In this document: piece by piece, positions 2,826-29,416 of the stretch | Layout: each line of letters starts with the position of its first letter | How positions within the stretch are numbered: the first letter of the stretch is position 1 | DNA from: Pseudogymnoascus verrucosus | Lineage: Eukaryota | Direction: 5' to 3' (one strand) | Assembly: GCA_001662655.1 (NCBI GenBank) | Contig: KV460287.1 | Length of the DNA: 29,416 nt | The notes under the pieces: model-generated | The model's input: only the letters and a program-made list of their open reading frames with translations | Told to the model about the DNA's origin: nothing | Databases searched by the model: none | Program-made: the position numbers and the translations under genes

Positions 2826-3455
2826 CCCCCGAAGCGAGGCCTACAAGGGGCCAAGCCATCATCGGTCCAGAGTCGTGGTTCTCTGTCCAGTCGAACCTAA
2901 CACGGAACGCTTTCAAGCCTATGGAAACTAGACGGAGCGAACTGCAGCTTCTAAGTCGTCAGATTCTGAAACGAGATCTTCCCGCCCGCGCACTAATTAA
3001 TTTTGCGTTTATAACGTATCCGGTGGCGAGGAAGGGGCCGAGCATCAATTGATGGAGCTGACCATCGAATACAAACCTCCTCACAAATTGACCTTGCGGC
3101 ATATTTATGAAGGACTTGCCGAGATGAACCTGGATGAAGTTGTGGTGGAAGGAGGTGAGAATGAAAGTGTGGCAATTCGCTGTCGTCTTTGGGTGGGTAG
3201 GTGAGATGACAGAAACAAGCTAGCTGTAGGGATGGACAACGATACGAAACGCCGTCTACGCCCAAGCTAGGGTGGCTGGCTGTTAACGTCGACGAAGGCC
3301 CGTGGGTGGTGGTTGATGATACGACAAAAGGGCTCTATGTTGCGCATGTTGGGCGACGAAAAGGCCGTGGTTGGTTAGGCTAGGACATTATTCAAATTCG
3401 TTTTAGGGCTAGCCATACACACTTCCTAAGCTCAAACTCTAAGCTATAATCTTCT

Positions 3456-5316
3456 CTATTCAACATGGCGAGCAGCGTTATCAATAGACTTATCATCCTC
3501 TATCGAAACTTGAAGAACTCTAGATGGTGCCTCCTTTGCGAGTGATCCTCGAAGATCACCCATGCTCGCGTCCCAGTGAAGCAAAACCTTCTCTCCTGTG
3601 AAAAGCAAATCGATTTGTTCAAGCGACAAGTTCCTGGTCTCAGGATAGAAAAACCAGATGATTGGGATGAAAAGCAAATTTAGTGCGGCAAAGTAGATGT
3701 AGGTCCGCCACTGAATTCTGTCGATAGAAACAGGGGTGATCATAACGACGAGGAAGGTGAAGATCCAGTTTGATGCGGTAGCCAGGGCCGCTGATTTGGT
3801 GCGGATAGCAAGCGGTGCGTACTCTGCAGGGAGTAACCATGGGATAGCGAGTAAACCAACGGCAAAGAAGAAATTGAAGAGGAAGAGCATCACGATAGCA
3901 ACAATCCCGCTAGGCTTGCTGCCATTAGCAACTGTTCCGGACAGTACAGCCATGCAGACGCATTGGCCGCAAGCGGCGAACAGCATGAGTTTACGACGAC
4001 CGAGACGGTCAAGGCACCAAATGGGGATGAGCGAGGAGAAGAAGTATGCAATTCCATTAAAGCCAGCGAGCAGCATGGCGGTAGAATGTGGAATACCCAC
4101 GGAAACTTCGAAGATCACAGGAGCATACTATACATTATCAGTACCCTGGCTTGAAGGCAAATGCAAGAATACTTACATATGTAATCAAGTTAATACCCGA
4201 AAGCTGCTGCATGAACTGACCTCCAATACCGAGGAGGGTTCGGTGACGGAATCTCTGCGGGCCACTCTTGAAAATGGCTAGGAAGCTGGTACCTCCCGCA
4301 GCTGCCCTTTCCTCCTCAAGTGCGTACTGGATACCGTGGAGTTCGGCAACGACGACATGGCTATCTTGATTGATTTCAGATGCATTCTTCTGTAACCTCC
4401 ACAGGACTATGCTAGCTTCGTCGGACCGGTCGTGGGCGACGAGCTAGAAGACACGTTATTAACCAAGATCAAAACTAGAACGTTGGAAGCTTACCCAACG
4501 TGGTGACTCGGGGAGGAAGTACATCATCGCCATGGTAATCAGAGCGAAGATGATTTGGAATGCAATTGGGAAGCGGAATTGAGCTTCGTTGTCAACGTAA
4601 CTCATGCCGTAGTCTATGAAGTTTGTTAGCACATGCTGCAAATGATACGCACCGGTTCTCGGCAGAATAGGGAAGCATTTCTTCACCTACCGACCCAGTA
4701 TGAAAGCATAACACCGAAGATGGTAATGGCCAACTCAATGGACAGACCTTTGCCTCGCAGTGTTGGTTTCATGAGCTCAGAATGCCACACGGCTACAATG
4801 TATCAATCAGTCATTTGTTCACATCCCGACTCAATCATCCGGGTGTTGTAACTTACGAATAGTGGCAGTATTCATGCCGTTGCCTAAGCCAGCCACAATT
4901 CGTCCAGCAATCAGATGCGAGATCTCAGTCGCAGCAGTCTGTACAGCAGCGCCGATGATGAGAATTGCGCATCCCAGGATGATGGTCCAGCGCCGCCCAA
5001 GGCGCTCACCGAAAGCAAAGGCGATGATGGCACCGATGAAGCATCCAATCTCGTAGATGGCAACGACTAACCCCTGCAAAGAGGAGCTTCCACCGCCGCC
5101 ATGAGTCGTGTCGATGGCAGGGAACTGTGCGATGAATGCAGAGCCGGTCAACAAACCACTCATTACACCCTGATCTAAGGAGGTATTTAGATGCGTTCAT
5201 AGAGCGAATAACGCACTGGGACGTGAGGGATTCTTACCATAACCAAAGAGCAGGAATCCCGTGCCTGCCGCGAGGGTGATGGCCCAATCAAGGGCGGAAC
5301 CGGTAAGCTTCGACAT
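3456..5316 (-). CDS. MFS sugar-porter family transporter, STL1-like (polyol/sugar:H+ symporter); 6 exons
   Basis: Exons 5316-5238, 5174-4857, 4792-4691, 4613-4495, 4443-4177 and 4127-3456 splice into one frame. Motifs FGYDQG, GERLGRR, PESPRWL, QQLSGINLITYY, DRLGRR, YPET. PVWHSE, YWVDYG and PWLLPAE are typical of the STL1 clade. Confidence 0.92.
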
Positions 5317-5537
5317 GTTGTCTTCGAGGTTCGTGTCGTAATTCAAGTCAACTTCTCAAAAGTAACATGCCAGGGACAGAGGTGCAATGCAGCGTAAACT
5401 TTAAGATGCGGATTGTGATGGATGTTCTAGGACCTTCTCCGGTGTTTGATACCCCATATATTTTCTTTTTTAAGAAGAGAACGTAAGATCTCTTTATAAT
5501 AATTCGCCACCTGAGCCATGACGCTACTAGCTAGCAT

Positions 5538-5872
5538 CTGGGGTCCCCAGGAAAGGTACGAAACTACTACCTGGGTTGCGGGCAAAGTTGGGGATGGTGG
5601 CTTCTTACCGCGCTTTCGGGTTGAGGGATTAGGTTTCGACTGGGGTCGTGACGGGTATCGAGATTGGCGCCAATCGGTGATGGTTCCCAGAGGCTCTCCC
5701 GATGTGGCCATCTTATGCGCAATTGCCTGTCCGTATTAAGAAATTTCGAGCGCCGCGCTAAATCTTCCTTCTTCTAGTCACTAGTCGCTGGTCCATCGGT
5801 GCGGGGTTTATCATGGAGTGTGTCTTAAATGTGGGTCTGATACATGGATGTCAGGAACGTGTCGCGGCGGAG
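5538..5872. promoter_or_regulatory. Cluster of CreA/Cre1 (SYGGRG) consensus sites in the divergent transporter/SDR promoter
   Basis: CTGGGG 5538-5543 and CCCCAG 5545-5550 (inverted pair), CTGGGG 5640-5645, GCGGGG 5801-5806, GCGGAG 5867-5872. Confidence 0.5.
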
Positions 5873-6140
5873 ACCTCACGGCCATTACTTACGACGTATC
5901 TTCTCTAGGCCTACGGTAATAGTAATAATCGGCGACTGGTAAGCCCCCATGCCAATGGAGCCTCAGCCATGACAATTTCTCCCATACTCGCACATGCTAT
6001 GTAAACTTGCATGCCATACGTCGCAGCTCGCTCACCTTTAAATTGCATAGCTGCTGCCATTAAATTGCCGTTTAACAGGTCCGCCCTGATACCTTCATTA
6101 AACTCGTATCTGGTTCCGAATAAGCTAATTCACTATCAAC

Positions 6141-7079
6141 ATGACTCAATCACTTGTCCCAGATACCACCTTGCCAACCGAAATCCCAGAGTCTCGCCAA
6201 TCAGCAGCTAATGCTCCCGTATCAAGCCTGTTCTCACTCAGCAAGAGAACAGTGATTGTCACGGGCGCTGGTCGAGGTCTAGGCATCGTGCTCGCTGAAG
6301 CAATTCTCGAATCTGGTGGCGACGTTATATGCCTCGATATTCTGCCAGCTCCAAGCAAAGACGAGTGGACTCGAATTGAGCAGACCCAGAAAACTTCCGG
6401 TACATATTGCAGCTACCATCAGTGCGATATCACCGACGAAGATGCTGTGACAGCAACTTTGACGGAGGCCGCAAAAGCTGCTTCGAAGAGGGGAAACCCA
6501 ATACGCGGGCTCATTTCGTGTGCCGGCATTCAGCAAATGCTGGATGCGATTGATTACCCTTTGGATGGTTTTAGACGGATCCTCGAGGTCAATGTCACTG
6601 GAAGCTTCTTGATCGCAAAGCATACTGCACGAATCCTATGGGATGAGGGTAACTCTGGCAGCATTGTCTTCATTGCTTCTATGTCTGGACAAATAGCCAA
6701 CAGAGTATGTGAAAAAATCTTCCTCGATCGGCTCATACTCACAATTGCTAACTCACTCAATCAGGGCATCCATTGCTCGGCTTATAACACATCCAAAGCT
6801 GCAGTGCAACAAATGAGCAGGTCGCTTGCTGTAGAATGGGGACAGTATGGCATCAGAGTGAACACACTGTCCCCGGGATATATCCGTACATCCATGACCG
6901 ATCAGCTGCTTGCAGAGAAGCCAGAAATTGAGAAGCTCTGGATGGCTGGTGCACTTCTCGGACGACTTGGTGCTCCAGAGGATTTCAAGGCTCCTGCAAT
7001 TTACTTGCTTACAGATGGTTCGTCTTTCATGACAGGAGCTGATTTGCGTGTGGACGGAGGACATTGCGCATCAGCATAA
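6141..7079 (+). CDS. Classical short-chain dehydrogenase/reductase, D-arabinitol dehydrogenase/sorbose reductase-like; one 60-nt intron (6705-6764), 292 aa when spliced
   Basis: TGAGRGLG Rossmann motif, Asp after beta-2 (CLDI, NAD-type), SCAGI, ASMSG, catalytic YNTSK, IRVNTLSPGY, DGG. Intron GTATGT...GCTAAC...CAG. Confidence 0.93.
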   Translation: MTQSLVPDTTLPTEIPESRQSAANAPVSSLFSLSKRTVIVTGAGRGLGIVLAEAILESGGDVICLDILPAPSKDEWTRIEQTQKTSGTYCSYHQCDITDEDAVTATLTEAAKAASKRGNPIRGLISCAGIQQMLDAIDYPLDGFRRILEVNVTGSFLIAKHTARILWDEGNSGSIVFIASMSGQIANRVCEKIFLDRLILTIANSLNQGIHCSAYNTSKAAVQQMSRSLAVEWGQYGIRVNTLSPGYIRTSMTDQLLAEKPEIEKLWMAGALLGRLGAPEDFKAPAIYLLTDGSSFMTGADLRVDGGHCASA

Positions 7080-7443
7080 TTACTTTTACTTACAACCTAA
7101 TTGAGTTAGAGGCATAATGAATGATATGTTGTGAAGTTGAATTGAAGTACATGTAAAAATATAATGTTTGTCAATCCGTCTGTCCATCAAGTCGCCGAAA
7201 TATTCATCAGCTATTTCTGAGCTGCGGACTCTTCGTCGTATAATCTTGTCTTCAAGACATGGAACTGAAATATCCGATGTTGATATTCTGATCTGTCTGA
7301 TATATCAGGCATAGAACTAAAATTGTACCCCGCAATGTTTAGTTCTTGCACGGACCTCCCTGACCCCAAACGATGCACAATCTACTTTCCTCCAGCTGTT
7401 AACTATACAACAGCTTGGTTGTTAGTCATGAGCATAATACAAC

Positions 7444-9961
7444 ATGCCAGGTAATGGAGCTCCCGAAGAGTTGGATGTCCAGAAGGATAAGGTGCAGCCC
7501 GATCCTCACATACCGCCACTTAGGGCAAGAGATCATAACCATACTACAAAACGGACCCGAGGTCGAAATGGTTGTCTCAATTGTAGACAACGGCGAAAGA
7601 AATGTTAGTGTTCCACCTGTTAAGGTTGCATCTTGCTGATAGTCTTGGTGATCCAGGTGACGAGAGGAAACCGGTCTGTTCAAAATGCTCCTCGCGTGGC
7701 GAGAGCTGCGAATGGGACACTGGTATCAAATTTCGAAATCGTGGCATTGACGCTAGCCCTCCATCCATGAGACGATTTGGGGGAAATAGGCGGCCGCCTA
7801 ATGAAGGCCAAGTAAGTCGTGCTGTGCTTATCCAACACACAGATACAAGGGGCGAAAATCATGCATTGCTGACTGGGTAGCTTCAATGCAGACCGACGAC
7901 ATTCGATTTGAGACTAGAATATTAAGGACTACTTGCTCGAACAACCCGCTTAACAACGAGAGGTGTGCAAGTAGTGAAGAACCACACGTCAGCATGTCTT
8001 TGGCTCCAAAGCAGCAACGGCTAAGGATACGGCATGAACCGCGGGGCGAGGTGAATCTATCAGCTCCCGACAACAGCCAAGACATTCACGGTCCGACTAT
8101 GGGATCGGATGGCTGGGCTACTGATTTGAATGAAGTGAACGATGATAGCGTCATCTCAACAAGAAACCGAACAGACCAATCTTCGCCGCACTCCATTCTC
8201 GCCCTTAATCACACAAGATCCGTCGGTTCAATTAATCGATCGCCGCCAGAACTTAGTCGCGATGGGGTTTACAAGCAGCATACCGCTCCCACTGGTGGCA
8301 CTGCGGCTCCGTTACTAGACCAAGCTCTTTCGAGGCCTAGCCCACACACATCTACAATAGACGCTTTCGTAAGCACTACGGAAGAACTTGAACCAGCTGG
8401 TATATTCAATGCCAACGGTGACCCATATCTACTAGACATTGACCTCGTCGAATTAGAGGCATTAGATTATCTTATTGCAAACCCGACCGATGCGGAACTA
8501 TTCTCAACAAATATGAACCAGATCGAAAGTTTACCATGGCCTCCCGACGGAAATTGTGAAGTCTTGCCAACGGACCACATATCAGCGGATTCGCCTCATA
8601 TTTATTCTACCTACTATCCGAATACTATATACGAAGAACTGCACACTGTACTCCACAATTATATGGTACAGACCGCACGGACTACTATGATGACACGGCA
8701 AGGTACACCCAACGCCACTTCTGAGGCCGCCTCCAGAGCACGGAATGATCCAGTAACCACTCAATATGTTAGCCAAGCTTCCCTTATGGATGCGGGTGCG
8801 CTCAAGAGACTGCCTGAAGGTACGAAACTGACTGATCGAAGAGAGCTTGAGCTTTGGCAGAATTACCTTGACGAAGTTGCTGTCTGGCTTGATATGTTCG
8901 ATGTGGAAAGACACTTCCAACTTAGGATACCGATGATGGCTAAATCTTCCGAACATCTTCGTTACTCCATTCTTGCTCTTTCCGCACGGCAGGCAGAAAG
9001 AAAGGATCCGGGAAAACCAGCCACCGAGAGTTTGACTCTATATCAGAAAGCGATCGAACTGATTGTTCAAGAACTACATTCTCTTGACACTGCTGTCATT
9101 GCATCGTGCGTGTTGCTCTGTGTTCTCGAGATGATGAGTTCCTCCCCGAAGGCCTGGGACAGACATCTTAACGGATGTTCGATGTTGCTCCAAGCAGCTG
9201 GTATTGATGGTACCGTTGGCGGAGTCCGTCAAGCATTGTTTTGGTGCTTTGCAAGAATGGATGTCTGGGGCGGGTTTCTCTCAGATACGCTGACCAAAAT
9301 TCCGACGAGTCGCTGGTTTATCCCTGGCCAGTCAATGTCGACGGCTGTAATCCGCTTTAAGACTGGCCCAGGCGGTTTCGACAATTATGCTAACTATGCT
9401 GTATTTCTCTGTGCCAGCGTTGTCAACGTACTCTCCAATCGAGGCTCATCATCTGCAGGACAAAGGGATCATACTTCTAATTCCAGGGGATCGTTATCTG
9501 CTCCGTGGAAAGCTTTGTATGACCTATTAGAAGACTGGTACAACAGTAGACCCGAGGAAATGCGGCCTCTTATGTCAAGTACAGCCACTCTAGACGATCA
9601 CTATCATCCTTTTCCAATTGTACTTTATGGGACCTCGCCTGCAGTCAATGGTAATCAGCTCTACCATGCATCATCTGTTCTCATGCTTCAAGAAAAGCCA
9701 AAGGAAATTCGTTTAACCAGAGGCCACAAATCTGTACAATGGCATGCTCGTCAGATCTGCGGTATTGCTACCTCAAATCATAGCCATGGAGCATGGATCA
9801 ACGCATTGCAGCCACTATTTATTGCTGGGAAGATTATGTCTCATCCCATCGAGCACCGAGTAATCCTTGACGTTCTGGCTCGTATCGAGAAAGAGACAGG
9901 ATGGGCAACTTCATGGCGTGCCGAGGACCTGAAGGAATATTGGGGGGATGTGGAAGAATGA
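7444..9961 (+). CDS. Zn(II)2Cys6 transcription factor with C-terminal fungal-specific TF domain; 3 exons
   Basis: Exons 7444-7603, 7657-7811 and 7892-9961 give RGRNGCLNCRQRRKKCDERKPVCSKCSSRGESCEW. The C-terminal region (WLDMFD..HF, ILALSARQ, FWCFARMD, ALQPLFIAG, IEKETGW) is typical of the Fungal_trans_2-type domain. Confidence 0.92.
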
Positions 9962-10279
9962 TAGTCCCTCGCAAACGCACTTTTCAACTACCCTTGCCCA
10001 CCAAGAGGCTATGTGACATGACATCGCATCTGGAAACATAGCCATGGCTTGGCCCCCCATTATTTCCAGCCACCCGATGTCGATCTTTCTTGTTTGCAAT
10101 GCCCCATCTGTTTCGACGATTTATGCTCTCCCCGGGACCTCCGCTAGGAGTTATTTGGACTCTGCACATTCCGGAACAGCTCGGCAAAAAAATTATATTA
10201 TTATTAATAATCACATTTACGGCTACACAGCGTCGATTCAATATGCCAGGAGATTCCGTCCCCAGAGATTGATACCACC

Positions 10280-12101
10280 TTATCCTTCACGATCGCGCTT
10301 TTGATGGAAGGAGTCCGTTTCCGGGTTGTAATCAAACTCCTTGTAGTCGGCACCATAGGGTTTCTAGTCTCGTGTCAGCTGCTTCAACTTTACTGACTTA
10401 TGTTGCACCTACGGGCTCAAGCAGATACACTGTACCCAGTGGAATATCAACGTTCGCAGAAACATAGCTTTGCATCCCTCTACAGTAGGCTAGTAGAACG
10501 CGAATGACAGCCGATCCTCCGATAAATAGGACGTGTCCTGTCACACGCTCCAGCTCGAGGATGATAGATCGAAGCCGTTTTGTCACATCACTATACCCCT
10601 CGCATCGAGTACCAGGATATCCTGTTGAAGTATGGTTCAGCTGTGTGTCAGAGGCCCGTTGCTTGACCTCAGCATCTGAAAGTCCACTAAGTATCCCGGC
10701 GCTCAAGTCGTCAAGCATACGCATATGCTCGATTCGATATCGTGCACTGTCAAAGAATTTTGCGGTCTGAATACTCCGCTGCGTCATGGAGGTCCACAGG
10801 TGAAACCTTTTTGGCGATTTATCTGCGGATAGGCGCAAGGAATCGCCAGCTTCTTCTAGTCTCTTTTGTTGCCGGTTCCATGTGTCCCGTTCCTGGTCAA
10901 TAAACCGGGATAATGCAGCGGCATATTTGACGCCATGTGGACTGAGACCAGGATCGTGGCTGACTTTGCCAGAAAGATTGTCGTTTGATTCGCCGTGCCG
11001 TGTGAGCCAGACTTGACGACCAGCAAGATTGAAGTGTTGGAGATAGCCAACAACCTGTGTCGCCAGAAAACTTTTGATATTGTGTGTGATGAACTTCCTC
11101 CCAACGTCAATCATTTGGCAGTAGGAGACGCCTAGGCGTTCTTCAATATTCCCTACGGGGGTGTATTTCTTTTGGTACATTGCGACACGTCTCCGAAAAT
11201 CTTCTAAGGCTTTGACAGGATCTTGATCTCTGTAATCTGGGTTCGACATCTTGAGTAGCATGTTCGATTGCAGAAGCTAGTAGGTTAAATCAGCTTTGCA
11301 TTATAGACTGAAATTGATCGCTAATATACGTACAGCTTCATCAAAACACTGGCTTTCCAAGAATAATACCTGCAAATTTGACCGTCCCCTCTCTTGTACC
11401 CTCGCAATGATCTTTCTCCTTCGCTCAATTGTGCTGTTGGTCGCATCGAAAATTGCAACAGAACCCCCTTCGTTCAACAGATAATCAAGCGACTCGTCTA
11501 AAGTTTCCATAGCAATTTGTTCCCGAAGTTTGCGAGCCTGAAGGTTGTCAGGGTTAAAGAACCCCGCTGAGTGGGTGCCATGGTCTAACGAGGCTTGGTA
11601 CGCCTCTGTGGACATCAAGCACGGGGCAGCCGATAAATCAAGTTGCCTACCTCCGACTTTTCGGCGCCGATTGCCAACATTAAATATCTTTGTTTCGTGC
11701 TGTAGCCAATTCAGGTATCTACAAACCTTATTGGTCACGTAGCTTTTGCCCCGCGCAGGCAACCCAACCATAACAATTACCAACTTTGCATCCACGGATC
11801 TTTCTATTTCGGTCGGAGACAGGAGGTTCGCATTGTTCTGAATACTTGAGGTAGGTGGGCATGAGGCGGATGGATTTTCAGTTGATCTTTTACGTTTGAG
11901 GTTCCCAGTTGTGATTAATCCACGAACCAGCGGTACGTCTTTTCGTCCATGGTTAGAGTCTCCGCAGATTTCAACACATCCTCGAGGCACGTGAGAATGA
12001 ACGTTGGTTTCTGGGCCGCGAGATGAAATATTTAGCCCCGAGGACATGGCATTGTCGGGCATTTGGTAAGGGTTTATTCCAGAATCCGACAGGGCTGACA
12101 T
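10280..12101 (-). CDS. 6-phosphofructo-2-kinase/fructose-2,6-bisphosphatase family protein (Pfk26-like paralog); 3 exons
   Basis: Exons 12101-11334, 11276-10413, 10363-10280. Kinase P-loop MVGLPARGKS, IFNVGNRRR, FDATNST, FLESQC; phosphatase-domain RHGES; C-terminal EPKPYG. Start codon uncertain (frame is open to 12320). Confidence 0.9.
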
Positions 12102-12583
12102 TGTTTGCGGTTCAATATCTGTCGAAGGGAGAAGATAGATGCGTAGGTTTAGCAAGTTGGCAAGGTTCAAATTAAAAGAATTCTTGAATTGATATATGTT
12201 AACAGTGTCGTTTGAAAATCTTTTGCATACCCGAAGTACGACCTCTGGAGACCTCATCACAAAGTCTAATCTGCTAAAATCGAGATTCTGGGCTTCGCCG
12301 TTTTCTCCTGCGCTTGACAATTCCCGAATCGGAGTTCCTAGCCGCTTCAGCTAGCGCCTATTTGCCTAGAACACCAATGGGAACGCCTAACCTTTCAAAA
12401 TGGACCAATCTATTTCAACACCATTATCGGATTACCCTAAAAGGAAATTCTAAGCGCCGGATTCATACAGAGAACGTCACGTGACATGAGTAGAAACAAC
12501 TGGTATATATGTATTGCAATGTGCACTGAACTTTATATCTGTCAGACACTTTTCAAGCTCATATATACCTGCCTACGTTTAAA

Positions 12584-14934
12584 ATGACTCCTTCACTCGA
12601 GGTCTTAGATATTGACCCGAAACCGACCCTGAACCCGTACAGTGTTAATTCGATCAAGAATGAAGATGGTGACAAAAATGATTTGGTATTAAAGGTATTT
12701 AGATGTCTTATCGCCGATCTTTGCGAGCAATTCAAAGGTGGACATCCTGGGTACGACCCCTATTGTTGTGTTGTGATCTTATTTTCACTAATGTAATGTA
12801 GAGGTGCCATGGGCATGGCAGCAATTGGAGTCGCCCTTTGGAAATACGTGATGCGATTCTCACCTCGCAATCCCTCATACTTCAACAGAGATCGTTTTGT
12901 CCTATCTAATGGTACGCCTCCCGTCTGAATAGTAGTTTTAGTATTTGAATTTCTGACATTCTTCTTTAGGACATACATGCCTCTTTCAGTATACTTTTAT
13001 GCACCTAGTCGGATATGACAATATGACTTTAGATCAATTAAAGTCATATCACTCGAAAAGAGTTGATTCTCTTTGCCCTGGTCATCCCGAGATCGAGCAC
13101 GAAGGTATTGAGGTTACGACTGGTCCCCTTGGTCAAGGTGTCGCAAATGCAGTTGGTCTGGCTATGGCAAGCAAGCACCTTGCAGCTATCTATAATCAAC
13201 CAGGCTTTCCTGTCGTTGACAACATGACTTGGTGCATGATAGGGGACGCTTGCCTCCAGGAAGGTGTTGCTTTAGAAGCAATTTCTCTTGCCGGCCACTG
13301 GAAGCTGAATAACCTTGCTATTATTTACGACAACAATCAGATCACCTGTGACGGCTCCGTTGATCTAGCAAACACTGAGGATGTGAATGGAAAGATGCGA
13401 GCGTCTGGCTGGAATGTGATAGATGTCTTTGATGGCGTGTTCGACGTCAATGGCATACTTGAGGCACTCATTACGTCCCGCGCAAGTGATAAACCAACAT
13501 TCGTCAATGTCCGCACTATTATTGGTGTCGGAAGTGCGGTAGCTAACAACGCAAAAGCTCATGGTGCAGCTTTTGGATCCGAGGCAGTTGCGAATATGAA
13601 AAAGAGCTTTGGCATGGATCCCGAGGCACACTTTGTAATTCCAGACACTGTCTATGAATATTTCCACGAAGTTCGCTCCAGAGGAGCGAGATATGAAGCA
13701 AACTGGAATTCTTTGGTCGCCTCATACGCTAAGAGCCACCCTCAGTTGGCACGAGAGTTTAACCTGCGAGTTCGTGGCAAAATGCTGGACGACTGGTCCA
13801 AATATATTCCATCAAAAGAGAGCTTTCCAACCGGACCCACCCCTTCCAGGAAGTCTGCTGGTATCGTGTGCAATCCTCTAGCACAAAACTTGAAGAACTT
13901 CATGGTTGGGACTGCAGACTTGTCTCCGTCAGTAAATATGATCTGGAAAGATAAAGTAGATTTTCAAAATGTAAGTTTATATCCTTCTATGCTCAGTCAT
14001 GAAAGTCTCTAACAGTTCCTAGCCCGAGCTCAAGACTGCTTGTGGAATTAATGGCGATTACAGTGGTCGCTATATCCACTGGGGAATCCGTGAGCACGCG
14101 ATGGCGTCTATTTCGAATGGCCTTGCTGCCTTCAACAGGGGTACTATACTTCCTATTACCTCAACATTCTTCATCTTCTACATTTACGCCGCCGCAGGAA
14201 TTCGCATGGGTGCCTTGCAAGGATTGCACCAGATTCATATTGCAACACATGATAGTATTGGCACGGGAGAGGATGGTCCAACGCATCAGCCTATTGCTCT
14301 TCCCTCCTTATACCGGTCCATGCCTAACCTTCTATATATTCGCCCCTGTGATACTGAAGAGGTAGCAGGCGCCTTCATAGCTGCTCTCAACGCCACCTCT
14401 ACACCATCAATAATCTCACTCTCTCGTCAGAATCTCCCTCAGTACCCAGCACACACCTCTAGAGACGGCGTCCAACTTGGTGCTTATGTCTTTTCCGAGC
14501 AGACCGGTGCAGAGGTTACCCTCATTGGTGTCGGCGCCGAGATGGTTTTCGCGGTTGAAACGCGCGATATTCTCGCAAAAGAATATGGTATCAAAGCTCG
14601 CATTGTCAGCTTCCCATGTCAACGCTTGTTCGATCAACAATCACGCGAATATCAGCAGGAAGTATTGCAATATCGTGCCGATCGACCAATCGTGGTGATT
14701 GAGGCCTTTGCAATAAACGGCTGGGAGAGGTACGCCGACGCAGGCGTTAGCATGAGCAGCTTCGGCAAGAGTTTGCCTGGTGGCACTGCGTACGAACATT
14801 TTGGATTTGATGGGAAGGTGATTGCACCGAAGGTCAAGGCCCTGGTAGAGAAGGTACGCAAAGAAGGCGTTCGTTGTTTGAGGGGCAATTTCCGGGACTT
14901 GAATGGGATTATGGGTTATGGATTTGAGCATTAG
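12584..14934 (+). CDS. Transketolase of the dihydroxyacetone synthase (formaldehyde transketolase)-like clade; 4 exons
   Basis: Exons 12584-12750, 12802-12911, 12970-13970, 14023-14934. GGHPG, RDRFVLSNGHTCLFQY (DAS-type rather than TKL-type NGHACALLY), TTGPLGQG, ThDP motif GDACLQEG...YDNN, GIREHAM, HDSIGTGEDGPTHQP. Confidence 0.93.
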
Positions 14935-15395
14935 TATTTGTGTTTGATTATTGCTAGATGCAAGTGACCTGCGTCTTAGGTTTTGTATAACGTTACCCAG
15001 TTATCAACGAGAATTTTACCAGTGCTGCGGAAGAAAGTGATGCCGGCTTGGGTTCACTTGTGTCTTTTCGAACATCGTGCTTCGCCTACCCGTGCTTCGA
15101 CTTCCACGTTGTCGATCGCGCCATTACATCTTTGTTAACCATTCCATCTTTCTCATAATCGACCCACTGTACGGCCCCCAGCCATCTCGCTAATTACCTA
15201 CAATCCACCCGTTATAGGGCCCAGCAAGTCTTGTCTGCTTCACTACTTTGAGTCTGATCCCCTGCCTCCTCTGATAAGTAAACCCTTACGCAAGAGAACC
15301 TCTGTGTCTACTATCGTGTAGTAGTCAGCGTTACAGTAAGTGCCTATTCTCGAAATAACACCATGTGTTAATGCTGACCATTTTACTTCCTATAG

Positions 15396-17086
15396 CAAAG
15401 CGAGTAGCAGCCGGCCCGAACCATTGTTGTGAGCGGAAATGAGGCTTTCCCGCAGGCTCTTATCAGGGAGCCGCCAAAGCCCCAAAGCGCCAGTTCTATT
15501 TATCTCTATCTGTGTTGCATCGTGGGGTTTTTCTGCTCCACCATGAACAGTTATGACGGATCTCTTCTAAACTCTCTTCTAGAGAGTAAAGACTTCCTTA
15601 AAGCATATAATGAGCTAGTTCTGGCATCTGGGCTGGAATCGCCACGAATATGTACACCATCGGTGGTGTTTGTGCTCTCCCATTTATCGGCCCTGCTATC
15701 GATACTTGGGGACGCGGAGTCGGCATGCTCATCGGTTCAGCGAGTGTCGTGTTAGGAACAGTGATTATGAGGACGGCTATTAACCGCTCTAGTGTGGGTC
15801 AATTTGAGGGTGGTCGTTTCCTTGTTGGGTGGGGCGTTCCCATTGCTTGTGCTGCTGGGCCCATGTATGTCGTCGACGTCTCCCATCCGGCATATCGTGG
15901 TATTGTCGGTGCCTTTTATAACACCTGGTGGTAGGTTTTCCATTATCATTTCGTGATCAGAGTGGTACAGAGGCTCATATAATTCCACAGGTTCACTGGG
16001 TCAATCTTAGCCAGCGGTGTCACCCGTGCTACGCATTCCCTGCCAGGCCACCAATCATGGATGACTACTCTCTGGTTCCAAATTGCTTTCCCAGGACTGG
16101 TATGCTTGGGGGCTTTATTCCTCCCCGAGTCTCCAAGATGGCTCCATGTCAACGGCAAATCTGAACAAGCACGGGCTATGCTCACTCGATTCCACGGAGA
16201 GGGCAACCCCGATAGCGTGTGGGTAACTTTTCAAATGCAGGAGTATGAGGAGTATCTTGAATTAGACGGCTCCGACAAACGCTGGTGGGATTACCGTGCG
16301 CTATTCAAGAACAAAAATACCTGGAACCGCCTATTCTGTAACTGTGCTATCCAAGCCATGGGCCAAGAAGCTGGCAACTGTGAGTCTGTCTAGAACCTCC
16401 GCAATATATACATACTGACGATAACTCATAACAGCCGTCCTCTCCTATTTCCAAGCCGCTGCGTTCGAAACAGCCGGTATCACAGACGAATTCACGCAAC
16501 ACAACCTTACTCTCGGTAACGCGTGTGCCAACAATTCTTCTTTGCGCTCATCGGCGCCACGCTTGTCGACAAAATCGGCCGCCGGCCATTGCTCATGTTC
16601 TCTAACCTCGCTTGCTGCGTAACCTGGGCCTCTATGTGCATAGCCGCCTTGATCTTCGCCTCGTCAGGACAGACCAATGTCGCCGCCGGGACTGCCACCC
16701 TCGCCTTCCAGTTCATCTTCGGAGCCGCGTACTCCATCGGTTTCACGCCACTACAAGCTCTTTATCCAGTCGAAGTGCTGTCCTTCGAGATGCGCGCTAA
16801 GGGTATGGCGTTCGGCTCGCTCGTTATGAATGTCGTGTCGATTTATAACAACTACGTCTGGCTCGTTGTCCTCAAGCGAATTGCATGGAAGTCTTTCATC
16901 ATTTTCTGCATCTGGTGCTTTTGCCAGGCGGTTATCACCTATTTCTTTATTCCGGAGACGAAGAACCGAACTTTAGAGGAACTCGATATCATCTTTGACT
17001 CGGATAGCCCCGTTAAGACGTCCCTGGAAAAGCGCACAGTTGGTGTTACTGCTCGTGGAGACGTTGTGGAGTACGGCGATGAGTAG
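15396..17086 (+). pseudogene. Lactose permease/cellodextrin transporter-family MFS pseudogene
   Basis: Motifs YDGSL, PESPRWL, GSDKRWWDYRALF, DKIGRR, FTPLQALYPVEVLSFEMRAKG, PETK. Frameshifts near 15612 (1 nt missing) and 16524 (extra TG), in-frame TAG at 15405-15407, no usable upstream ATG. Introns near 15930-15990 and at 16380-16434. Confidence 0.85.
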
Positions 17087-18388
17087 ATTATCCCTGCCAA
17101 GGTTTCTCTGTGTATCACTGGTCCCTAAGGGGGTGTTTATTACTCTATGCGATAACCTCCAAGATTCGGAATCCCGAGGTACATTGCTTGCTCGTTAACT
17201 TAGAGTCTATGTAATATCACACATACATATCTACTGAATTTTAAATATACTATAACTTTAAACATCTCAAGTATAAAAATTTAGTTTTGATACTGGCTTT
17301 CAAGTCGCACTAATTGCTTCAACAATTATTTTTGCCTCTGCTTAGCATCTGATGATACCACAAAATAAAATGCTTATTCTGGGTGGTAGCGCTTGTCATT
17401 AGCTAAGCCTAGTACAGGTAAGCCTAGTACAGCCTCGTAGGAATGTCTGTTGCTACTGCTCAATAAATCTTGTCCTTACATGGGAGAGAATGCCACCCGC
17501 ATTTTGTGACTATTGGACGGACTTCATGTATTTGCCTTATGTATCACGTACAACAAAGTGTGAGTCTACGCAGTGTCACAAGGCCGAATCTAGTAAACTA
17601 ATCCCCAGAGAACTCAAGATTAATCATCGTCGACGTCACACCCGCCAACCCAATGAGTTGGAAAACATTGGCCTGCAGCTCATCATGCATGTTAGATTTT
17701 CATCGAGATATTCCACCATATGCAGGAAGCCGTGCATTGTCACCCCCCCCCCTTCCCCCGCCCCCACCACTAAAATAATACATACTTTCACTTGTTGTCG
17801 CTTGTTTTCGATATCTTGGTCGAAATTGATGGTAAGGAGAGTGCCACGTTATTACATATTAACTTTAATCCTTCAATTGCACTGCCTCCTTGGTTGCATT
17901 AAACTGCATTTGCAGAGCCTCGTTAAGTGTCGGGTCAAGAGACCTTCTCGTAGTCAACTTGTTAATCTGCAGGCTTGAGGCGGGGCTGGCTTTTGTCCCA
18001 TATCGTCGTTGAAATCAAGTCATGATGGATTGCAATAATGGTAGACCAATTAGCAGAATATGATAGTCGGCGTGTTGGGTACTCCTCCCGGTTTTCTTTG
18101 CCTTATTTGTATCGGGTCGTTAGGTTGGGCCGTTCTGCTAGCCTTTCGGGCCACCCCGGTATCTTACACTCAAGGCGACCAAGTACTGTGTGTACTTTGC
18201 TCACCGGAACACTTTGGCATGTTATATAATTCCTTCATTATTAAGAGCAGATGTGCTGCCTATTCCCAAAATGTGAATTAATTCCCAAGAACCTCAATGT
18301 ATCGGATGACTTAGAACCGGCTTGTGGACAATGGTTTTATATAGGATAGGTACTGGTAACCCTACTGGGTAACTGACAGCGAGAACAA

Positions 18389-20702
18389 ATGTCAACCGAA
18401 TTCGAAACACGCAGGGAATTTTCTCATCAGTCTTTGCGACGTTATTGGCCCAAGCGGTTCACAAAACGCCAACCGTTTAATCCCAACAGCGAAAATCAAA
18501 CATACCTCGAATATCTTCAAATCGAACAGTATCTCGGCGAAGGGGTTTCGGACGAGGAGGATGAGGAGGAGGAGGGGAATGAAGTTGAAGCTGAAGAGGA
18601 AGATGGCGCATCGTGTGAGGATGATGGGTCTTCAAATGCGCCGGAGGATGACGTCAACGAGCAGTCTAAAGCCGCCGATGCTAGCAATCAGATAAGCGAT
18701 GTCAGACGCTTTATGAGAGGGATGGAAAGGGATGAGGATTTCCTGGATGATTACGATATGGTTGATGAGGTGGCGAAATTTTGTGAAGGAGGATCTGATG
18801 GGCCCTTTCGAGCACGTGAAAAACATGTGGCAATTCTGGACGAAAGAAACATTGCCGGTACTATCATCGACAAGGGAGGATACTGCAGGACAAACTTAGA
18901 GCCTTTGACCTTGGAACAGTTATTCGACAAGTTGAGCAGAAAGGTAATTCAAATCTCATGCTAGTATAAGAACTCATGATAACTGATTCAAACTGCACAG
19001 CGCCTTCGAGTTGAGTCTGACTCGACTAACGCATTCGATGATGAGGAAATTGACGCGGAGAGGAGAATAGTGTAAGTCCTAGGGCTGATGTGTTCTATCT
19101 TATATAATGTGGCTAATCTGTCTAGTTTCATCTCTGATTTGGACTCATTCACAATTCAGGCCATTATAAAAACGGCATCACGCACCCAAGCCCCGGCTTT
19201 AAGGGATCTTTTTCACAAGTACCTGACGCGTAAAGCATCTATAGGTGTTACTATAGTAAGTACTTTCAGATCAAACGTCCATTCCAGATATCACTATGAC
19301 TTATACTAATTTTCACGTGGTAGTCAAACGGGTTCCCCGTCTTTACTCTCGAGTTACATATGCCATACTATGTATTAGGAAAAAGCAAAACGGCAAGCAG
19401 AGATGCTCGAAGGAAATCTGATGGCAGTCCCTTAAGACAGTCACGGAAATTAGACTTCCTGTCCAGGTCTCTAGATGCATCGAAAGGTTCAAACCCAACA
19501 GATCAGCACTACTGGCTACATGAGGCCCAGATTTCAATTGTTGTAACGGGGGTTAACAATTGGGTGTGGACTGCCTATGGATTTGTCGATACTTATTTTG
19601 GGTCCAAGGGGACAGTGGAAGACTACGATAAATTGAAGGGACGACACTGGGAACGAGAAGACCCTCTTGCGGCTGGGCGGCTGAACGGTGGTGAGCCCAT
19701 ATGGACGCCTAGAGAATACTTCTTGAGAGTGGCTCAAAGCCGCATACGAGAGGTTCTGAAGGAATGGAACCGGATAGTCCGCACGGTTACGGAAGAGGTA
19801 GAAGGGTACGTATTGTGTGTAGACGCTGTCTTGGTGTGGATTTTCACTGTGGATTAGTGGCGACCATGGGCTCTGTTCTCCATTTTCTAATTTCATGCTT
19901 TACTGTGATTTCGGGTGCTGAAGGCTAATTGACTTACTCACAAACAGGTCCAGAGATCTGGTATACAGCTCGTCTAAGATTACAGCTCAAAAGTTAGAGT
20001 TTCTAGAACGGCGGAACAGTCAAATGGCAGCTCTTTCAACGCAACTGATCGGTGGTCTTTCTGAGACCATTCAAGCATGGGAAGGATTCCGGACAACAGA
20101 GGCCAACTATTTTCTTTTTGATGAGGTTTCAACTGCCGAACCATCCCTCGAAGCCTCATTGAACGCTATTGATAAAGAGTTTTCGAAATTAATGCCGGGT
20201 CTACGGAAGTTAGAGCAATTGAAGAAAGAACTGTGCGACCGTAGGGAGGGTGTAAGTCATCTCCAAAACTCTGCATATAGAGGGCTAATAAACGTAACAG
20301 CTCAATGCTTATCTGAGTCTCGATGGACGCGCCGCTGCCAGGCAGCTCCAGGACCTCACTGTTCTCGCCATAGCAAGTTCCCCTGGAAAGTATCGTATTT
20401 GGGCAGCATGTCTAACCATATGTTTTTCCAATTCATAGGTATTCTCTCCTCTACTTATTACCTCGGCCCTGTTCAGCGCCACGGGAGTGCTACCTTCCCC
20501 GGGCCTGGGGAAGTTCATATATGTGTTGGTTGTCGTCACGGGCACAATGGTGGCGATGCTCCTAGTCTTATACCACTGGCGATACTGCTTACAGCGAGGG
20601 GTTGACTATATGCAAAGCGCAGTTAGTTCTTTCAATGAACTACTGAATGGAAACAGGATTTCCAGCGACGCTGAGTCGTGGGACATTGAGAAGGGGCCAT
20701 AG
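18389..20702 (+). CDS. Uncharacterised fungal protein with acidic N-terminal tract, helical region and two C-terminal TM helices (CorA-like topology); 7 exons
   Basis: Exons 18389-18943, 19001-19071, 19126-19255, 19324-19805, 19948-20251, 20301-20372 and 20439-20702 splice into one open frame (last intron GC-AG). Ends LTVLAIVFSPLLITSALFSAT...FIYVLVVVTGTMVAMLLVL. The CorA-like assignment is inference; no GMN motif. Confidence 0.75.
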
Positions 20703-21212: not shown

Positions 21213-23207
21213 ATGGTTCTAATGGCAACCTCTTCACTCCCTGGCCTTCAAACCTTTGTAGCGCAAATCGGGCTCGATCCACTCCCGACTTTTGCAACAG
21301 CAGATGCTTTGAATAATCCTATTGATATCTACCATTCATATCTCGCAGAGCGCTTGCAGACGCTTGTCGAGTGCGACCCAGATGTCGTCTACCATTCTAT
21401 TCAACTTTCAAAGACAATTGAAGATGGAGACTTAGATATCGTTTTGCCGAAGCTAAAACTAGCTGGCGTAAAGCCCAAAGAGCTCGCAGGCGAGCTTCTC
21501 AAAAAAGTTGGTAAATTCCTTTATTTTAATTGAGGTGGCGGTCCAAAATCTAACGTAACTCTTTGATAGTTTCTACCTCATCCCCTCTTTGCTGCCCCTT
21601 TCAAAGATGGCGTCCACATTCGAGTCCTTTTCTCCACCAAAAATACTCCGCGACTCCTTCTCCCCTATGTCAACGACCGGAAGGCCACTTATGGCAACTT
21701 TCCAGCTCTTGGACTACAAGACCAAGCCGAATCTAAAAGTAAAAAGGTCATCGTCGAGTTCGCACGGCCGAATATTGCAAGGGAGTTCACCATAGACCAC
21801 TTGAGAAGCTCGATCCTTGGTGCTTATGTATCCAACATACATGAAGCAATGGGCTATTCTGTGGTTAGGGTTAACTACTTAGGAGATTGGGGAAAGAATC
21901 TCGGTCTGCTCGGAGTGGGCTGGCAGAAGCATGGCTCGGAAGAGATTGTCAATGAGCAGACAGATCTGTTTAGATATATACACGACTTGTATGCTAAGAT
22001 GGAAGAGGAGCTTCAGCCAGAGCAGGATGCGAGAAAGAAGGCTCGACAAGATGGCCAGGATACATCGGTTCTTGAAAGCCAGGGCCTATTCGCAGAACGG
22101 GACGCGACCTTTAAGCAAATGGAAGACGGCGAGCCAGCAGCGATGGCCTTGTGCGAGAAGCTCCGAGCTATCACTATCGAGTATTACATCGAGACCTATG
22201 CAAAACTCAATATCAAGTTTGATGAATATTCTGGCGAATCCCGAGTTAGTCTTGATTCAGAAGCAATTGCCCAGGTCGAGTCGATGTTGAAAAAGAATGA
22301 TGTTTGGGAAGAGAAGGATGGGGCATGGGTTATTGACTTCGACAAGCACGGTGCGAAGCTAGGTACTGCAGCCATTCGAGATAGAAACGGCTCCACGACG
22401 TACCTGCTCAGAGACATTGCGACAGTCTTCGACCGACTCAAAACCCACGAGTTCGACAAGATGGTATACGTTGTTTGCGAACAAGACGTGCATTTTCGAC
22501 AAGTTTTCAAAGCCGTTGAGATCATGGGTCGTGGAGATGTCGCGAACAAGCTGCAACATGTCACCTTTACCAGAGCTAATAGTCCTGTAGCTCAACCTGG
22601 AAGTACCCAACTGCTAGGTGACATCCTCGATCAATGCGAAAATCATATGCGTGATGCAATGACTGCGAACCCGGATGAGTATCAGATTGAAGATCACGAT
22701 GCAGTTGCAAAAGCGATGGCAATAAATTCCCTAGTTCTCCATCAGCTCTCTCTGAAGAAGGGCGACAGCAACGATCTTGACTTCAATCTCCTTACCTCTC
22801 CAACAGGCGAGACAGGCACAAATCTACAACTGTGCTATGCAAAGCTCTGCTCTGAAATTGCCAGCGTTGGGCCGTACCCAGGTCCAGATGAAATTCCCGA
22901 TCTCGACTACACCTCACTCTCGCAACCCCCTTATTCTGATGTACTCCGACTGATAGCCAGGTATCCAGTCGCGACCCAATTCGCTTTCGAAAAATTGGAC
23001 CCGGGCATAATTATTCTTTATATGTTCCTAGTTATCGATGAGCTAAGTGCTTGTCTTGCTATTGATGAGTTTGAGAGAGTTGAGGGTGAGGGGGAAAGCT
23101 CCTCTGCTGGGTTGAAGCATCTAGCTCGAGTGGTTATGTATGAAAACATTCGACAGGTGTTGGAAAATGGTTTGAAGCTGCTTGGGATTACTCCTATTAG
23201 TCCATGA
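21213..23207 (+). CDS. Arginyl-tRNA synthetase-like protein with degenerate catalytic motifs; 2 exons
   Basis: Exons 21213 (or 21222)-21506 and 21570-23207 are in frame. ArgRS hallmarks VEF..PNIA..F...HLRS, NYLGDWG, FDEYSGES, DRNGSTTYLLRDIA, KMVYVV, LENGLKLLGITP. Confidence 0.9.
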
Positions 23208-24539: not shown

Positions 24540-25010
24540 ACGTATTTCACGGGCGAGCTGGTTACTTGGGCGAGCTGGTCACCAAAACACCAAAATTTGA
24601 CTATTACTACTACTACTACACCACTACCCTATATAATAACCCTTATTCGATCGTAATCAATTCCTAGCGCTTCTCGCACGTACAGGCGTTATGCCCTTTA
24701 GTGCCACATACTCTATAGTGCTGCTGTCGGCCTGTAGAACCCACCTACTAAATGGTCTCACTTGCTACCTCCATACAGACTTGAGCATCTACCTTAGCAC
24801 TCTAAAGTATATCCTCTCCCTCTTGTACGGAGAGGCTTCCCCCTTACATTATATACCTCTTACGCTTCCTTTCCCTCCTCTTCTTCTATTCATTTGCAGC
24901 TTATAGAGCCTTAACTTCTACCTTTAGTAGAATAGCAGAATGCATCATAACCTAAGCTCCCTTTATAAGCTAGCTTAGTACATTATTAATTAAGCTAGGT
25001 AAGCTATTCT
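24540..25010 (-). mobile_element. 3' end of a RIP-mutated Fot1/pogo-type (Tc1/mariner) DNA transposon
   Basis: TA followed by TIR ACGTATTTCAC-GGGCGAGCTGGTTAC-TT-GGGCGAGCTGGTCACC (24540-24583, two internal direct repeats). Minus-strand relic EVKAL*AANE...YRVCGTKGHNACTCEKR is the C-terminal CCHC knuckle of Fot1-like transposases. Inner boundary approximate. Confidence 0.85.
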
Positions 25011-25012
25011 AA

Positions 25013-25618
25013 TGTTATATAACATAGTTCTTAATATACTTACGTAAACTATCTATACGTTACCTTACCCATTAATTAGATATAAACTAGCAGGATAATG
25101 CTATTAATTACAACAATAGACAACATAAGGGTAGACGCTTAATATAAATGAAAGTAATAACAGCCCATTATAACGCTATTATAGTCACCTTACTAAGTAT
25201 AGTATAAGATAATAGATTAACCTACCTACACCCTAAAACCCTAAGGCTATAGGCCTTACCTATAGAAACCTATAAAGACAGACCCTTAGGGTAAGTAGAG
25301 GCAAATCCTCTAAGAAACGGACTATCTACATATAAGAGAAAAAACCATAGGAGGAGCAGAGTCGTCTCTCTCTCCTAACGCTAGACAATGTTACATAGCT
25401 TCACACTAGTCTAAATTTACAAGATTAGCGCAAACGCTTTCTATTATAAGATAATATAAAGTAACTCTAAGTTCTTTATAATAAGTATCTATGAGATTAA
25501 CTAGATTATCTAGGAGAGGGAAGCAGCTAAGGATAAGGAAACGCTCTACCTTATTTAGGACAAGCTTCTATATATGCACTATAACTATTCTAATGTCTTT
25601 TTAAAGTTAGAATCTAAT
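25013..25618 (+). mobile_element. RIP-degraded retrotransposon fragments (gag/pol relics)
   Basis: TpA-rich. The right part translates ...IQDKLLYMHYNYSNVFLKLESN (read through a RIP stop), resembling the LP....DY.DVFSK segment preceding Gypsy RT. Left part unresolved. Confidence 0.5.
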
Positions 25619-26153
25619 TGTTACAGCTAGGGCTTTTAGCAGCACTATTGCTAACACCCTAAGTATAGTAGCTATAAACATGTTAGTAAGTTAACTACCC
25701 TTAAGGCAGGGTTAACATTAGGTAACAGAGTTTTCTTAGGCACTTGCTTCTATAGGTACTAGAGAATTCCTAGGCACCTAAGAATTGCTAGGTACTAGAT
25801 AGAGTAGGCACCTAACTCTTTCTAGGTACCTAACTATTATAAGGTACTAGACACAGTAGGTACTAGACTATTCATAGGCACCTCCTTATAAGAACCCTAC
25901 ATAATAGAATAGTAGGAATAGTAAGAATAGCAAAGGAGTTTGCTATTCTAACTATTCCCTTTAGTATAACGCTACTATATAAGTAGATAGTTAGTTCTTA
26001 GATAGGAGCTTTATGCTTAACTTAATATAGTATTTGTTATATACTATAACATGTTTTATAAAAGCCTTTATGTCTAATCCTCTACCTCCTCTATTAAGTA
26101 AACTAATGTAACGAAACCTTTATAAGTCTTATAGTTTAAGACCTAGCGTTACA
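25619..26153 (+). repeat. LTR (~535 bp), subfamily variant of the LTRs at 26238-26693 and 28885-29414
   Basis: TGTTACAGCT...GCGTTACA. The 3' part (from TAGTAGGAATAGTAAGAATAG) is nearly identical to 29172-29414. The 5' part is diverged but keeps AGG(T/C)AC(C)T repeats. Confidence 0.85.
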
Positions 26154-29414: not shown

Positions 29415-29416
29415 AC

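Follow-up and report, generated by a model that had tools for sequence, protein, structure and literature searches.

A conserved gene neighbourhood of a dihydroxyacetone synthase-like transketolase, a short-chain dehydrogenase, a sugar porter and a Zn2Cys6 factor in Pseudogymnoascus verrucosus, with a predicted kinase-only PFK-2 paralog: a candidate polyol-catabolic cluster of filamentous ascomycetes

Analysis of a stretch of 29,416 nucleotides from contig KV460287.1 of Pseudogymnoascus verrucosus (assembly GCA_001662655.1), which is referred to as the window throughout, led to five neighbouring genes at positions 3456-14934. These encode a sugar porter of the major facilitator superfamily (MFS1), a classical short-chain dehydrogenase/reductase (SDR), a Zn2Cys6 transcription factor (TF), a paralog of 6-phosphofructo-2-kinase (PFK-2) with a degenerate fructose-2,6-bisphosphatase (FBPase-2) half, and a transketolase (TK) resembling dihydroxyacetone synthase (DAS). 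The cluster is a real conserved unit whose linkage extends beyond close relatives and is not due to chance. Its recurrence in many fungi only remotely related to one another makes it probable that the genes act jointly on a small sugar alcohol. We tentatively favor the reading that they represent a co-functional carbon-catabolic cluster of filamentous ascomycetes, the core of which would be a second TK of the DAS lineage, an NAD-type SDR, a porter and a Zn2Cys6 activator. The integrity of the genes, their linkage, their sets of catalytic residues and the loss of FBPase-2 residues were observed directly.

The linkage was studied in JGI metagenome contigs, which were scanned with the largest TK exon and yielded 80 fungal loci, 55-91% identical to it and many of them with 10 kb on each side. 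The window proteins were compared with these loci by tblastn, near-identical loci were collapsed into 66 groups, and an identity of at least 40% was required of SDR orthologs; matches below threshold, such as those of L012, L014, L015 and L072 (SDR 34-35%, TF 27-32%), were not counted as orthologs. In 18 dereplicated loci the TK is flanked on each side by 8 kb or more. Among them, the SDR was found in 8, within 10 kb of the TK, the porter in 6, the TF in 8 and at least one of the three in 10. When all flank sizes are considered, SDR orthologs are located near the TK in 14 dereplicated loci, and in 13 of the 19 SDR-positive locus rows the distance between the two genes is below 1 kb, in divergent or tail-to-tail orientation. 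Orthologs of MFS1 (47-74% identity) occur in the TK loci L002, L008, L010, L026/67, L037/38, L042 and L079/80, while TF orthologs (34-63% identity) occur in 11 dereplicated loci, the one of L054 matching the Zn_clus domain. Overall, the orthologs of cluster genes beside the TK present 40-88% identity, lie in diverged contigs and vary in order. All five genes in the order of the window are found in L002, TF-SDR-TK in L004 and L005, porter-Dak-TF-SDR-TK in L008, porter-SDR-TK in L010, TF-porter-SDR-TK in L026, TK-SDR-porter-TF in L038 and L042, and porter-SDR-TF-TK in L079. Such changes of gene order are expected where selection keeps genes together. As a negative control, the genes of the window outside the cluster (three pieces of the gene at 18-20 kb and the arginyl-tRNA synthetase) gave no high-scoring segment pair in any of the 80 loci.

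Phylogeny and named genomes agree with this picture. In a tree of the TK exon the SDR-linked loci are placed in both main branches, and the label requires 12 changes against a shuffled mean of 16.7, a value as low being reached in 4 of 500 shuffles; since SDR-linked TKs are spread over both branches, the TK-SDR pairing is old or repeatedly kept rather than the product of one recent event. In four named genomes, one of them that of an orbiliomycete, the locus tags of TK and SDR also follow directly on each other: Cadophora malorum (IFR04_003681/003680), Xylaria longipes (CHU98_g10685/10686), Arthrobotrys megalospora (TWF281_005143/005144) and Chaetomium olivicolor (VTI74DRAFT_5132/5133). In at least 10 more genomes the TK and SDR records give the same longest-contig value. 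The orthologs are therefore linked elsewhere, in metagenome loci as well as in named genomes, and the conserved unit assumed by the original prediction stands. Some TK loci that lack the SDR (L030, L054 and L021) carry a Zn-dependent alcohol/polyol dehydrogenase or an aldo-keto reductase, together with a porter and an orthologous TF. As these loci hold other oxidoreductases, the general pattern can be described as transporter, oxidoreductase, DAS-like TK and regulator, which suggests that the oxidoreductase modules are interchangeable among DAS-like TK loci.

Gene models were assembled manually, following stop-to-stop frames and the splice consensus, and families were assigned by Pfam. All five genes are confined to 3456-14934, at the coordinates and in the orientations given with each gene below, and are intact after removal of canonical GT..AG introns; the shortness of these introns and a GC content of about 47% in the gene-rich part give the sequence a fungal signature. 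The original prediction had described five intact carbon-metabolism genes arranged as two divergent pairs around a regulator, and the spliced models with their Pfam domains bear this out. The first pair consists of MFS1 and the SDR, separated by a spacer of 824 bp (5317..6140) which, according to the gene models and a motif scan, is a divergent promoter region holding one copy of TGCGGGGT at 5800; the second consists of PFK-2 and the TK, with a spacer of 326-482 bp, and the regulator lies between the pairs. A contig of a second strain (public run X1) spans 3000-15281 with 38 substitutions and no indels relative to the window. In a relative with a similarity of about 95-97% (X2), pieces of all five genes are present, and of the indels listed (8 of 27 rows) all eight fall in modelled introns or intergenic DNA. 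The comparison with X1 and X2 is independent support for the gene models.

The TK gene is located at 12584-14934 on the plus strand and has three introns (exons 12584-12750, 12802-12911, 12970-13970 and 14023-14934). It encodes a protein of 729 aa ending in GYGFEH, in which the three expected domains were detected: Transketolase_N (E-value = 2.8e-99), Transket_pyr (4.7e-36) and Transketolase_C_1 (6e-31). The catalytic, cofactor and phosphate-site residues of the yeast enzyme were listed from general knowledge, and the window TK is identical to yeast TK (1gpu_A/1tka_A) at H30, H69, H103, D157, N187, H263, R359, S386, E418, H469, D477, H481 and R528, H30 being read in exon 1 (GGHPG). Because all of these residues are identical, the protein is predicted to be a working transketolase that binds at least one phosphorylated substrate. 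The intact phosphate site would fit glyceraldehyde-3-phosphate (GAP) as acceptor and, equally, ordinary phosphorylated donors. The TK is 73-77% identical to proteins that their sources name transketolase or dihydroxyacetone synthase, and its putative assignment to the DAS lineage derives from these names and from a statement in an excerpt of PMC3866509 rather than from a tree. According to that excerpt, Pezizomycotina have DAS orthologs and may have a capacity for methanol. In Aspergillus niger, the paralogs TktC and NRRL3_10165 are listed as predicted EC 2.2.1.3 by homology, alongside a separate housekeeping TktA (excerpt of PMC6231085). A peroxisomal targeting signal of type 1 (PTS1), sought as a terminal (S/A/C)(K/R/H)(L/M), is absent from the window TK, which ends in FEH, and from all 100 orthologs of at least 700 aa; lacking a PTS1, the enzyme is probably cytosolic.

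The SDR gene (6141-7079, plus strand) has one intron (exons 6141-6704 and 6765-7079) and encodes 292 aa with adh_short/adh_short_C2 domains (adh_short_C2 E-value = 1.2e-47). The spliced model contains the motifs of classical SDRs, namely TGxxxGxG (TGAGRGLG), YxxxK (YNTSK) and an acidic residue at the end of beta-2, here the Asp of CLDIL, and this Asp is conserved in 120 of the 120 SDR orthologs listed. An acidic residue at that position marks NAD preference in SDRs. By this general coenzyme rule, the Asp of the window protein and of its listed orthologs indicates a putative NAD-type enzyme, in agreement with the NAD-dependent SDR originally proposed. Among solved structures, those of polyol and sugar-acid dehydrogenases come nearest (E-values from 1e-36 to 1e-35), at modest similarity, and the names given to orthologs are automatic and mixed, including 'D-arabinitol 2-dehydrogenase', 'mannitol dehydrogenase' and 'gluconate 5-dehydrogenase'.

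The PFK-2 gene is read on the minus strand from 12257 (or from an ATG at 12101) to 10398, with one intron (exons 12257 or 12101 to 11334, and 11276-10398), and encodes about 548-600 aa with the domains 6PF2K (E-value = 1.4e-44) and His_Phos_1. Its kinase half is complete in comparison with human PFKFB3, as the Walker A motif GLPARGKS and the motifs NRRR, KLRE, FDATNST and ERRR align and the Arg residues of the fructose-6-phosphate site are kept. The catalytic roles of the FBPase-2 residues are known from the PFKFB literature. Of the His-Glu-His set, the window protein keeps the His of RHG, while Gly stands in place of the second His ('figgsav' against 'ichqav' in PFKFB3) and Asp in place of the catalytic Glu ('lddlsag' against 'lneidag'). 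The His of 'GHR/CHQ' is missing in all 9 clade members inspected, which retain RHG and the kinase motifs; the same loss is seen in P0241-P0245, L001, L044 and L046, and the eight housekeeping-type sequences of the alignment all keep 'GHR'. Since every member examined lacks the second catalytic His of the bisphosphatase half, the cluster PFK-2s are probably kinase-only, and the window paralog is predicted to be a kinase-dominant or kinase-only enzyme. Eight TK-linked or His-lacking PFK-2s form one long-stemmed clade (SH-aLRT 100, stem 0.71; tree calculated without L044) that is separate from the housekeeping PFK26-like sequences of the same fungi. Only six database proteins exceed 50% identity with the C-terminal exon, the remaining homologs (41-50%) being ordinary PFK26-like proteins. 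The dedicated PFK-2 of the original prediction is thus supported and sharpened, as a separate paralog clade with lost FBPase-2 catalytic residues.

The PFK-2 gene is established directly upstream of the TK in L001, L002, L044 and L046, that is in 4 of the 39 dereplicated loci with at least 1.4 kb of upstream sequence. In these four it lies on the TK strand and reads toward the TK, while in the window the two genes diverge, from which it follows that the window carries an inversion of the PFK-2 gene. In Coniosporium apollinis the PFK-2 gene W97_03626 adjoins the SDR gene W97_03625 and the TK record gives the same longest-contig value; in Exophiala xenobiotica the PFK-2 and TK records share that value, an indirect sign of linkage. 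The closest named relatives of the window SDR and PFK-2 are rock-inhabiting and black-yeast lineages of other classes, i.e., P0242/P0243 (Coniosporium), P0245 (Exophiala) and P0124-P0130, unlike those of the TK, which are Leotiomycetes. This patchy distribution of the PFK-2-bearing form among classes might reflect transfer or differential loss.

The regulator gene (7444-9961, plus strand) has two introns (exons 7444-7603, 7657-7811 and 7892-9961) and encodes a 794 aa protein with a Fungal_trans_2 domain (E-value = 5.3e-19). Its six-Cys motif spans intron 1 and in the spliced model reads CX2CX6CX6CX2CX6C (CLNCRQRRKKCDERKPVCSKCSSRGESC), within the class pattern CX2CX6CX5-12CX2CX6-8C. We infer that this factor regulates the other cluster genes. 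No CGG-Nx-CCG dyad common to the cluster promoters of the window and L002 was found, and among shared 8-mers the best, ACCCCGCA/TGCGGGGT, is present in 5 of the 10 promoters compared, a count that shuffled controls also reach. In the window TGCGGGGT is present twice, at 5800-5807 and 7327-7334, both times in a cluster promoter, and at least two copies were obtained in 9 of 100 shuffles; its GCGGGG core resembles a CreA/Mig1 site. It is a weak lead only, not significant against shuffles. The porter gene MFS1 (5316-3456, minus strand) comprises six exons (5316-5238, 5174-4857, 4792-4691, 4613-4495, 4443-4177 and 4127-3456) that give an open spliced model of 518 aa. Sugar_tr (PF00083) was matched on three exons (E-values of 6e-42, 3e-07 and 7e-21), covering profile positions 14-452, and the Atlas clusters nearest to the last exon are 99-100% Sugar_tr, with names that are generic or read 'myo-inositol transporter'. 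By these matches MFS1 is a member of the sugar porter family, and 'STL1-like' is a putative label that goes beyond membership of Sugar_tr.

No sugar kinase domain was detected in the window, as the 66 open reading frames (ORFs) of at least 60 aa outside the models all lack a Pfam match at E ≤ 0.01, and tblastn with the Dak gene of L008 gave no match there (best E-value = 0.068). On these two grounds the window holds no recognisable sugar kinase, as had been claimed. The PFK-2-like protein was considered as the missing sugar kinase and dropped, its fructose-6-phosphate-site residues being conserved. The Dak gene in question is a complete five-exon Dak1+Dak2 gene at L008:3027-5138 (plus strand), between the porter and the TF of a homologous cluster, and by tblastn it is the only one in the 80 TK loci. 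The flanks of 13 loci were annotated with Pfam, amounting to 198 ORFs of at least 100 aa (140 + 58) and 58 more from a finer scan of L008 2300-5650, 256 in all. Neither Dak nor FGGY was found in the 12 other annotated loci, and FGGY was not seen in any annotated locus. Homologous clusters therefore do not always carry a DAK or FGGY kinase, the former being present in 1 of 80 loci and the latter in none of the annotated ones, and the window is not marked by this comparison as the remnant of a kinase-bearing type. The L008 gene is a sign that at least one relative would phosphorylate a triose or a tetrulose.

In the function that we propose, the porter would import a small polyol or ketose, and the SDR would oxidise the polyol to a ketose with NAD+. 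The TK would then transfer a ketol group between an unphosphorylated partner and a phosphorylated one (GAP/xylulose-5-phosphate), so that carbon would enter the pentose-phosphate pathway; a transfer with one unphosphorylated partner distinguishes DAS-type enzymes. The likeliest substrates would be C3-C4 compounds, namely erythritol with L-erythrulose as its intermediate or glycerol with dihydroxyacetone, because the only kinase seen in a homologous cluster belongs to the Dak family, whose substrates are trioses and tetruloses; both routes agree with the examples given in the original prediction. In the lineage of the window and a few others, a PFK-2 paralog with a crippled bisphosphatase would have been acquired, and its induction should raise fructose-2,6-bisphosphate. 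Such a rise would pull fructose-6-phosphate derived from the pentose-phosphate pathway through PFK-1, block fructose-1,6-bisphosphatase (FBPase) and maintain the supply of triose-phosphate even when no glucose signal is present. The pentose phosphate-yielding direction is favored because a kinase-only PFK-2 would presumably inhibit the FBPase needed by the formaldehyde-fixing xylulose-monophosphate cycle. We infer in this way the substrate, the direction, the co-regulation and the need, or otherwise, for a kinase encoded elsewhere. The strictest version, a kinase-free polyol entry widespread among filamentous ascomycetes, we regard as unlikely: the SDR would provide a ketose (e.g., L-erythrulose from erythritol), a cytosolic TK would move its C2 unit onto GAP to give xylulose-5-phosphate, and in some lineages a phosphatase-dead PFK-2 would drive hexose phosphate down glycolysis and regenerate GAP.

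Several points weigh against a co-functional catabolic cluster of this kind. In 8 of the 18 well-flanked dereplicated loci none of the three partners (SDR, porter, TF) is present, PFK-2 is found in only a minority of the clusters, no shared promoter motif exceeded shuffled controls, and the linkage in named genomes was read from locus tags and contig records, not from DNA. What speaks for the substrate is family membership only, the source names of the SDR being automatic and mixed, and an intact phosphate site would also be expected of an ordinary TK acting on two phosphorylated sugars. The last point leads to the main rival, an ordinary polyol or pentose route in which a ketose such as D-xylulose would be made by the SDR and phosphorylated by a xylulokinase, DAK or similar kinase encoded elsewhere, and the TK would add non-oxidative pentose-phosphate capacity, the cluster being incomplete rather than kinase-free. 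The TK does retain every phosphate-binding residue, SDR orthologs are named D-arabinitol 2-dehydrogenase by their sources, the Dak gene of L008 indicates that a kinase can belong to the unit, and xylose fermentation by Ogataea polymorpha requires Das1, which in part takes the place of Tkl1 (excerpt of PMC6052537). However, with a separate housekeeping TktA, as in A. niger (excerpt of PMC6231085), a dedicated second TK paired with a dehydrogenase across classes needs a reason. A kinase accompanies only 1 of the 80 loci, and D-ribulose, the product implied by the automatic SDR name, is by the stereochemistry rule for these enzymes not a TK donor. We judge this route somewhat unlikely.

The opposite direction of the same chemistry was also considered, that is fixation of formaldehyde or a short aldehyde as in classical DAS, where xylulose-5-phosphate and formaldehyde (or glycolaldehyde) would give GAP and dihydroxyacetone (or erythrulose), the SDR would reduce the ketose to glycerol or erythritol or a Dak would phosphorylate it, and the porter would move the polyol. 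The name dihydroxyacetone synthase given by several sources to TK orthologs, the Pezizomycotina orthologs with their suggested methanol capacity (excerpt of PMC3866509) and the Dak gene of L008, DAS and DAK being a known pair, are all in line with it. Yet PTS1 is absent from the window TK and the 100 orthologs, no alcohol oxidase, formaldehyde dehydrogenase or catalase domain was detected among the 256 flank ORFs of the 13 annotated loci, and a kinase-only PFK-2 would be expected to stop the xylulose-monophosphate cycle at FBPase. Catabolism would also account better for a sugar importer and an NAD-type SDR, and fixation is quite unlikely in our view. Finally, few fungal gene families are as large as those of sugar porters, SDRs and Zn2Cys6 factors, and such genes could become neighbours by chance without any shared function. 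This is highly improbable, because the genes that recur beside the TK in diverged contigs and in changing order are orthologs and not mere family members, the other genes of the window never recur at TK loci, and the TK-adjacent PFK-2 always comes from one special clade. The catabolic cluster working on a small polyol remains the reading that we prefer.

Downstream of the TK, a short dispersed repeat at 15246..15335 marks the right-hand end of the conserved block. It has a depth of 200-2400 in run X1 against about 17 elsewhere, many contigs terminate in it, and it coincides with the right limit of synteny with L002, which shares the block from MFS1 to the TK and not the DNA past the TK. A second sugar porter, MFS2 (15400..17086, plus strand), is decayed, with pieces of Sugar_tr in three frames, frame switches near 15600 and 16525 that leave no room for an intron, at least two frameshifts and no clean N-terminus. 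The X1 contig over 15509-17500 has the same letters with no gaps, and since a second strain is identical without indels, the frameshifts are not an assembly slip of the record. MFS2 was dropped as a part of the functional unit, being frameshifted, absent from L002 and matched in other TK loci at only 23-29% identity, and it probably lies outside it. Further downstream, at 18377-20605 (plus strand), lies a gene of several exons whose product has an acidic N-terminal region and matches no Pfam family, followed by an arginyl-tRNA synthetase gene (tRNA-synt_1d and DALR_1) at 21213-23207 (plus strand). The region 25000-29416 is AT-rich (GC content of about 0.33 against about 0.47 elsewhere in the window) and poor in ORFs, and may be degenerate repeat DNA.

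The cluster is apparently undescribed: no published account of a cluster joining TK, SDR, porter and TF, or of a PFK-2 paralog within a cluster, was found in the article texts searched, mostly outside subscription journals, and supplementary tables of fungal cluster surveys may list the TK-SDR pair. In the same texts, neither a thiamine diphosphate-dependent transketolase nor a kinase producing an allosteric effector was found as a member of a fungal catabolic cluster. The second 'dihydroxyacetone synthase-like' TK of non-methylotrophic moulds has so far had only a predicted role (excerpts of PMC6231085 and PMC3866509), and its place in a conserved cluster, together with genes for a dehydrogenase, a transporter and a regulator, provides a concrete context for its inducing polyol and its donor and acceptor pair. 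If the TK takes an unphosphorylated ketose, carbon would enter the pentose-phosphate pathway independently of a kinase, which could be useful for engineering the use of erythritol, glycerol or C1/C2 aldehydes. Likewise, a PFK-2 recruited into a catabolic cluster would make it an unusual cluster, encoding its own allosteric control of flux and of the switch between glycolysis and gluconeogenesis.

The closest parallel is the erythritol utilization cluster of Yarrowia lipolytica, comprising EUF1, EYK1, EYD1, YALI0F01584g and YALI0F01628g, which like the window is a small polyol-catabolic cluster of an ascomycete with a dedicated TF and a dehydrogenase (excerpt of PMC5992420). EYK1 is an erythrulose kinase of the dihydroxyacetone-kinase kind (excerpt of PMC5992420), the same family as the Dak of L008. 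Compared by gene content, the window differs in having a TK, a sugar porter and a PFK-2 paralog, and in lacking a kinase and a TIM-like or RpiB-like isomerase; isomerase domains were likewise not found in the 13 annotated TK loci. With the formaldehyde transketolase of methylotrophic yeasts (dihydroxyacetone synthase, EC 2.2.1.3) and its partner DAK, the window would share the TK lineage, according to source names and an excerpt of PMC3866509. Enzymes of this class are known to take one of their partners in unphosphorylated form, and a Dak partner is also present in L008. Yeast DAS is peroxisomal (excerpts of PMC6052537 and PMC3866509), while the window TK has no PTS1 and is probably cytosolic. 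Unlike that of the DAS of methylotrophs, its gene has those of an SDR, a porter and a TF as neighbours instead of methanol genes, no alcohol oxidase being found nearby.

The yeast 6-phosphofructo-2-kinases of the Pfk26/Pfk27 type reportedly have no bisphosphatase activity. Like them, the window PFK-2 combines a complete 6PF2K half with a degenerate His-phosphatase half, which predicts net synthesis of fructose-2,6-bisphosphate; its clade differs in that the first His (RHG) is kept while the second His and mostly also the Glu are lost, and in the location of the gene inside a catabolic cluster. Fungal catabolic clusters such as those for quinate, galactose and L-rhamnose combine a transporter, an oxidoreductase and a Zn2Cys6 regulator. 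The window shares this architecture with them, as well as the bidirectional promoters and the patchy phylogenetic distribution, and it differs from them by having a thiamine diphosphate-dependent transketolase as its committed enzyme and a kinase that makes an allosteric effector.

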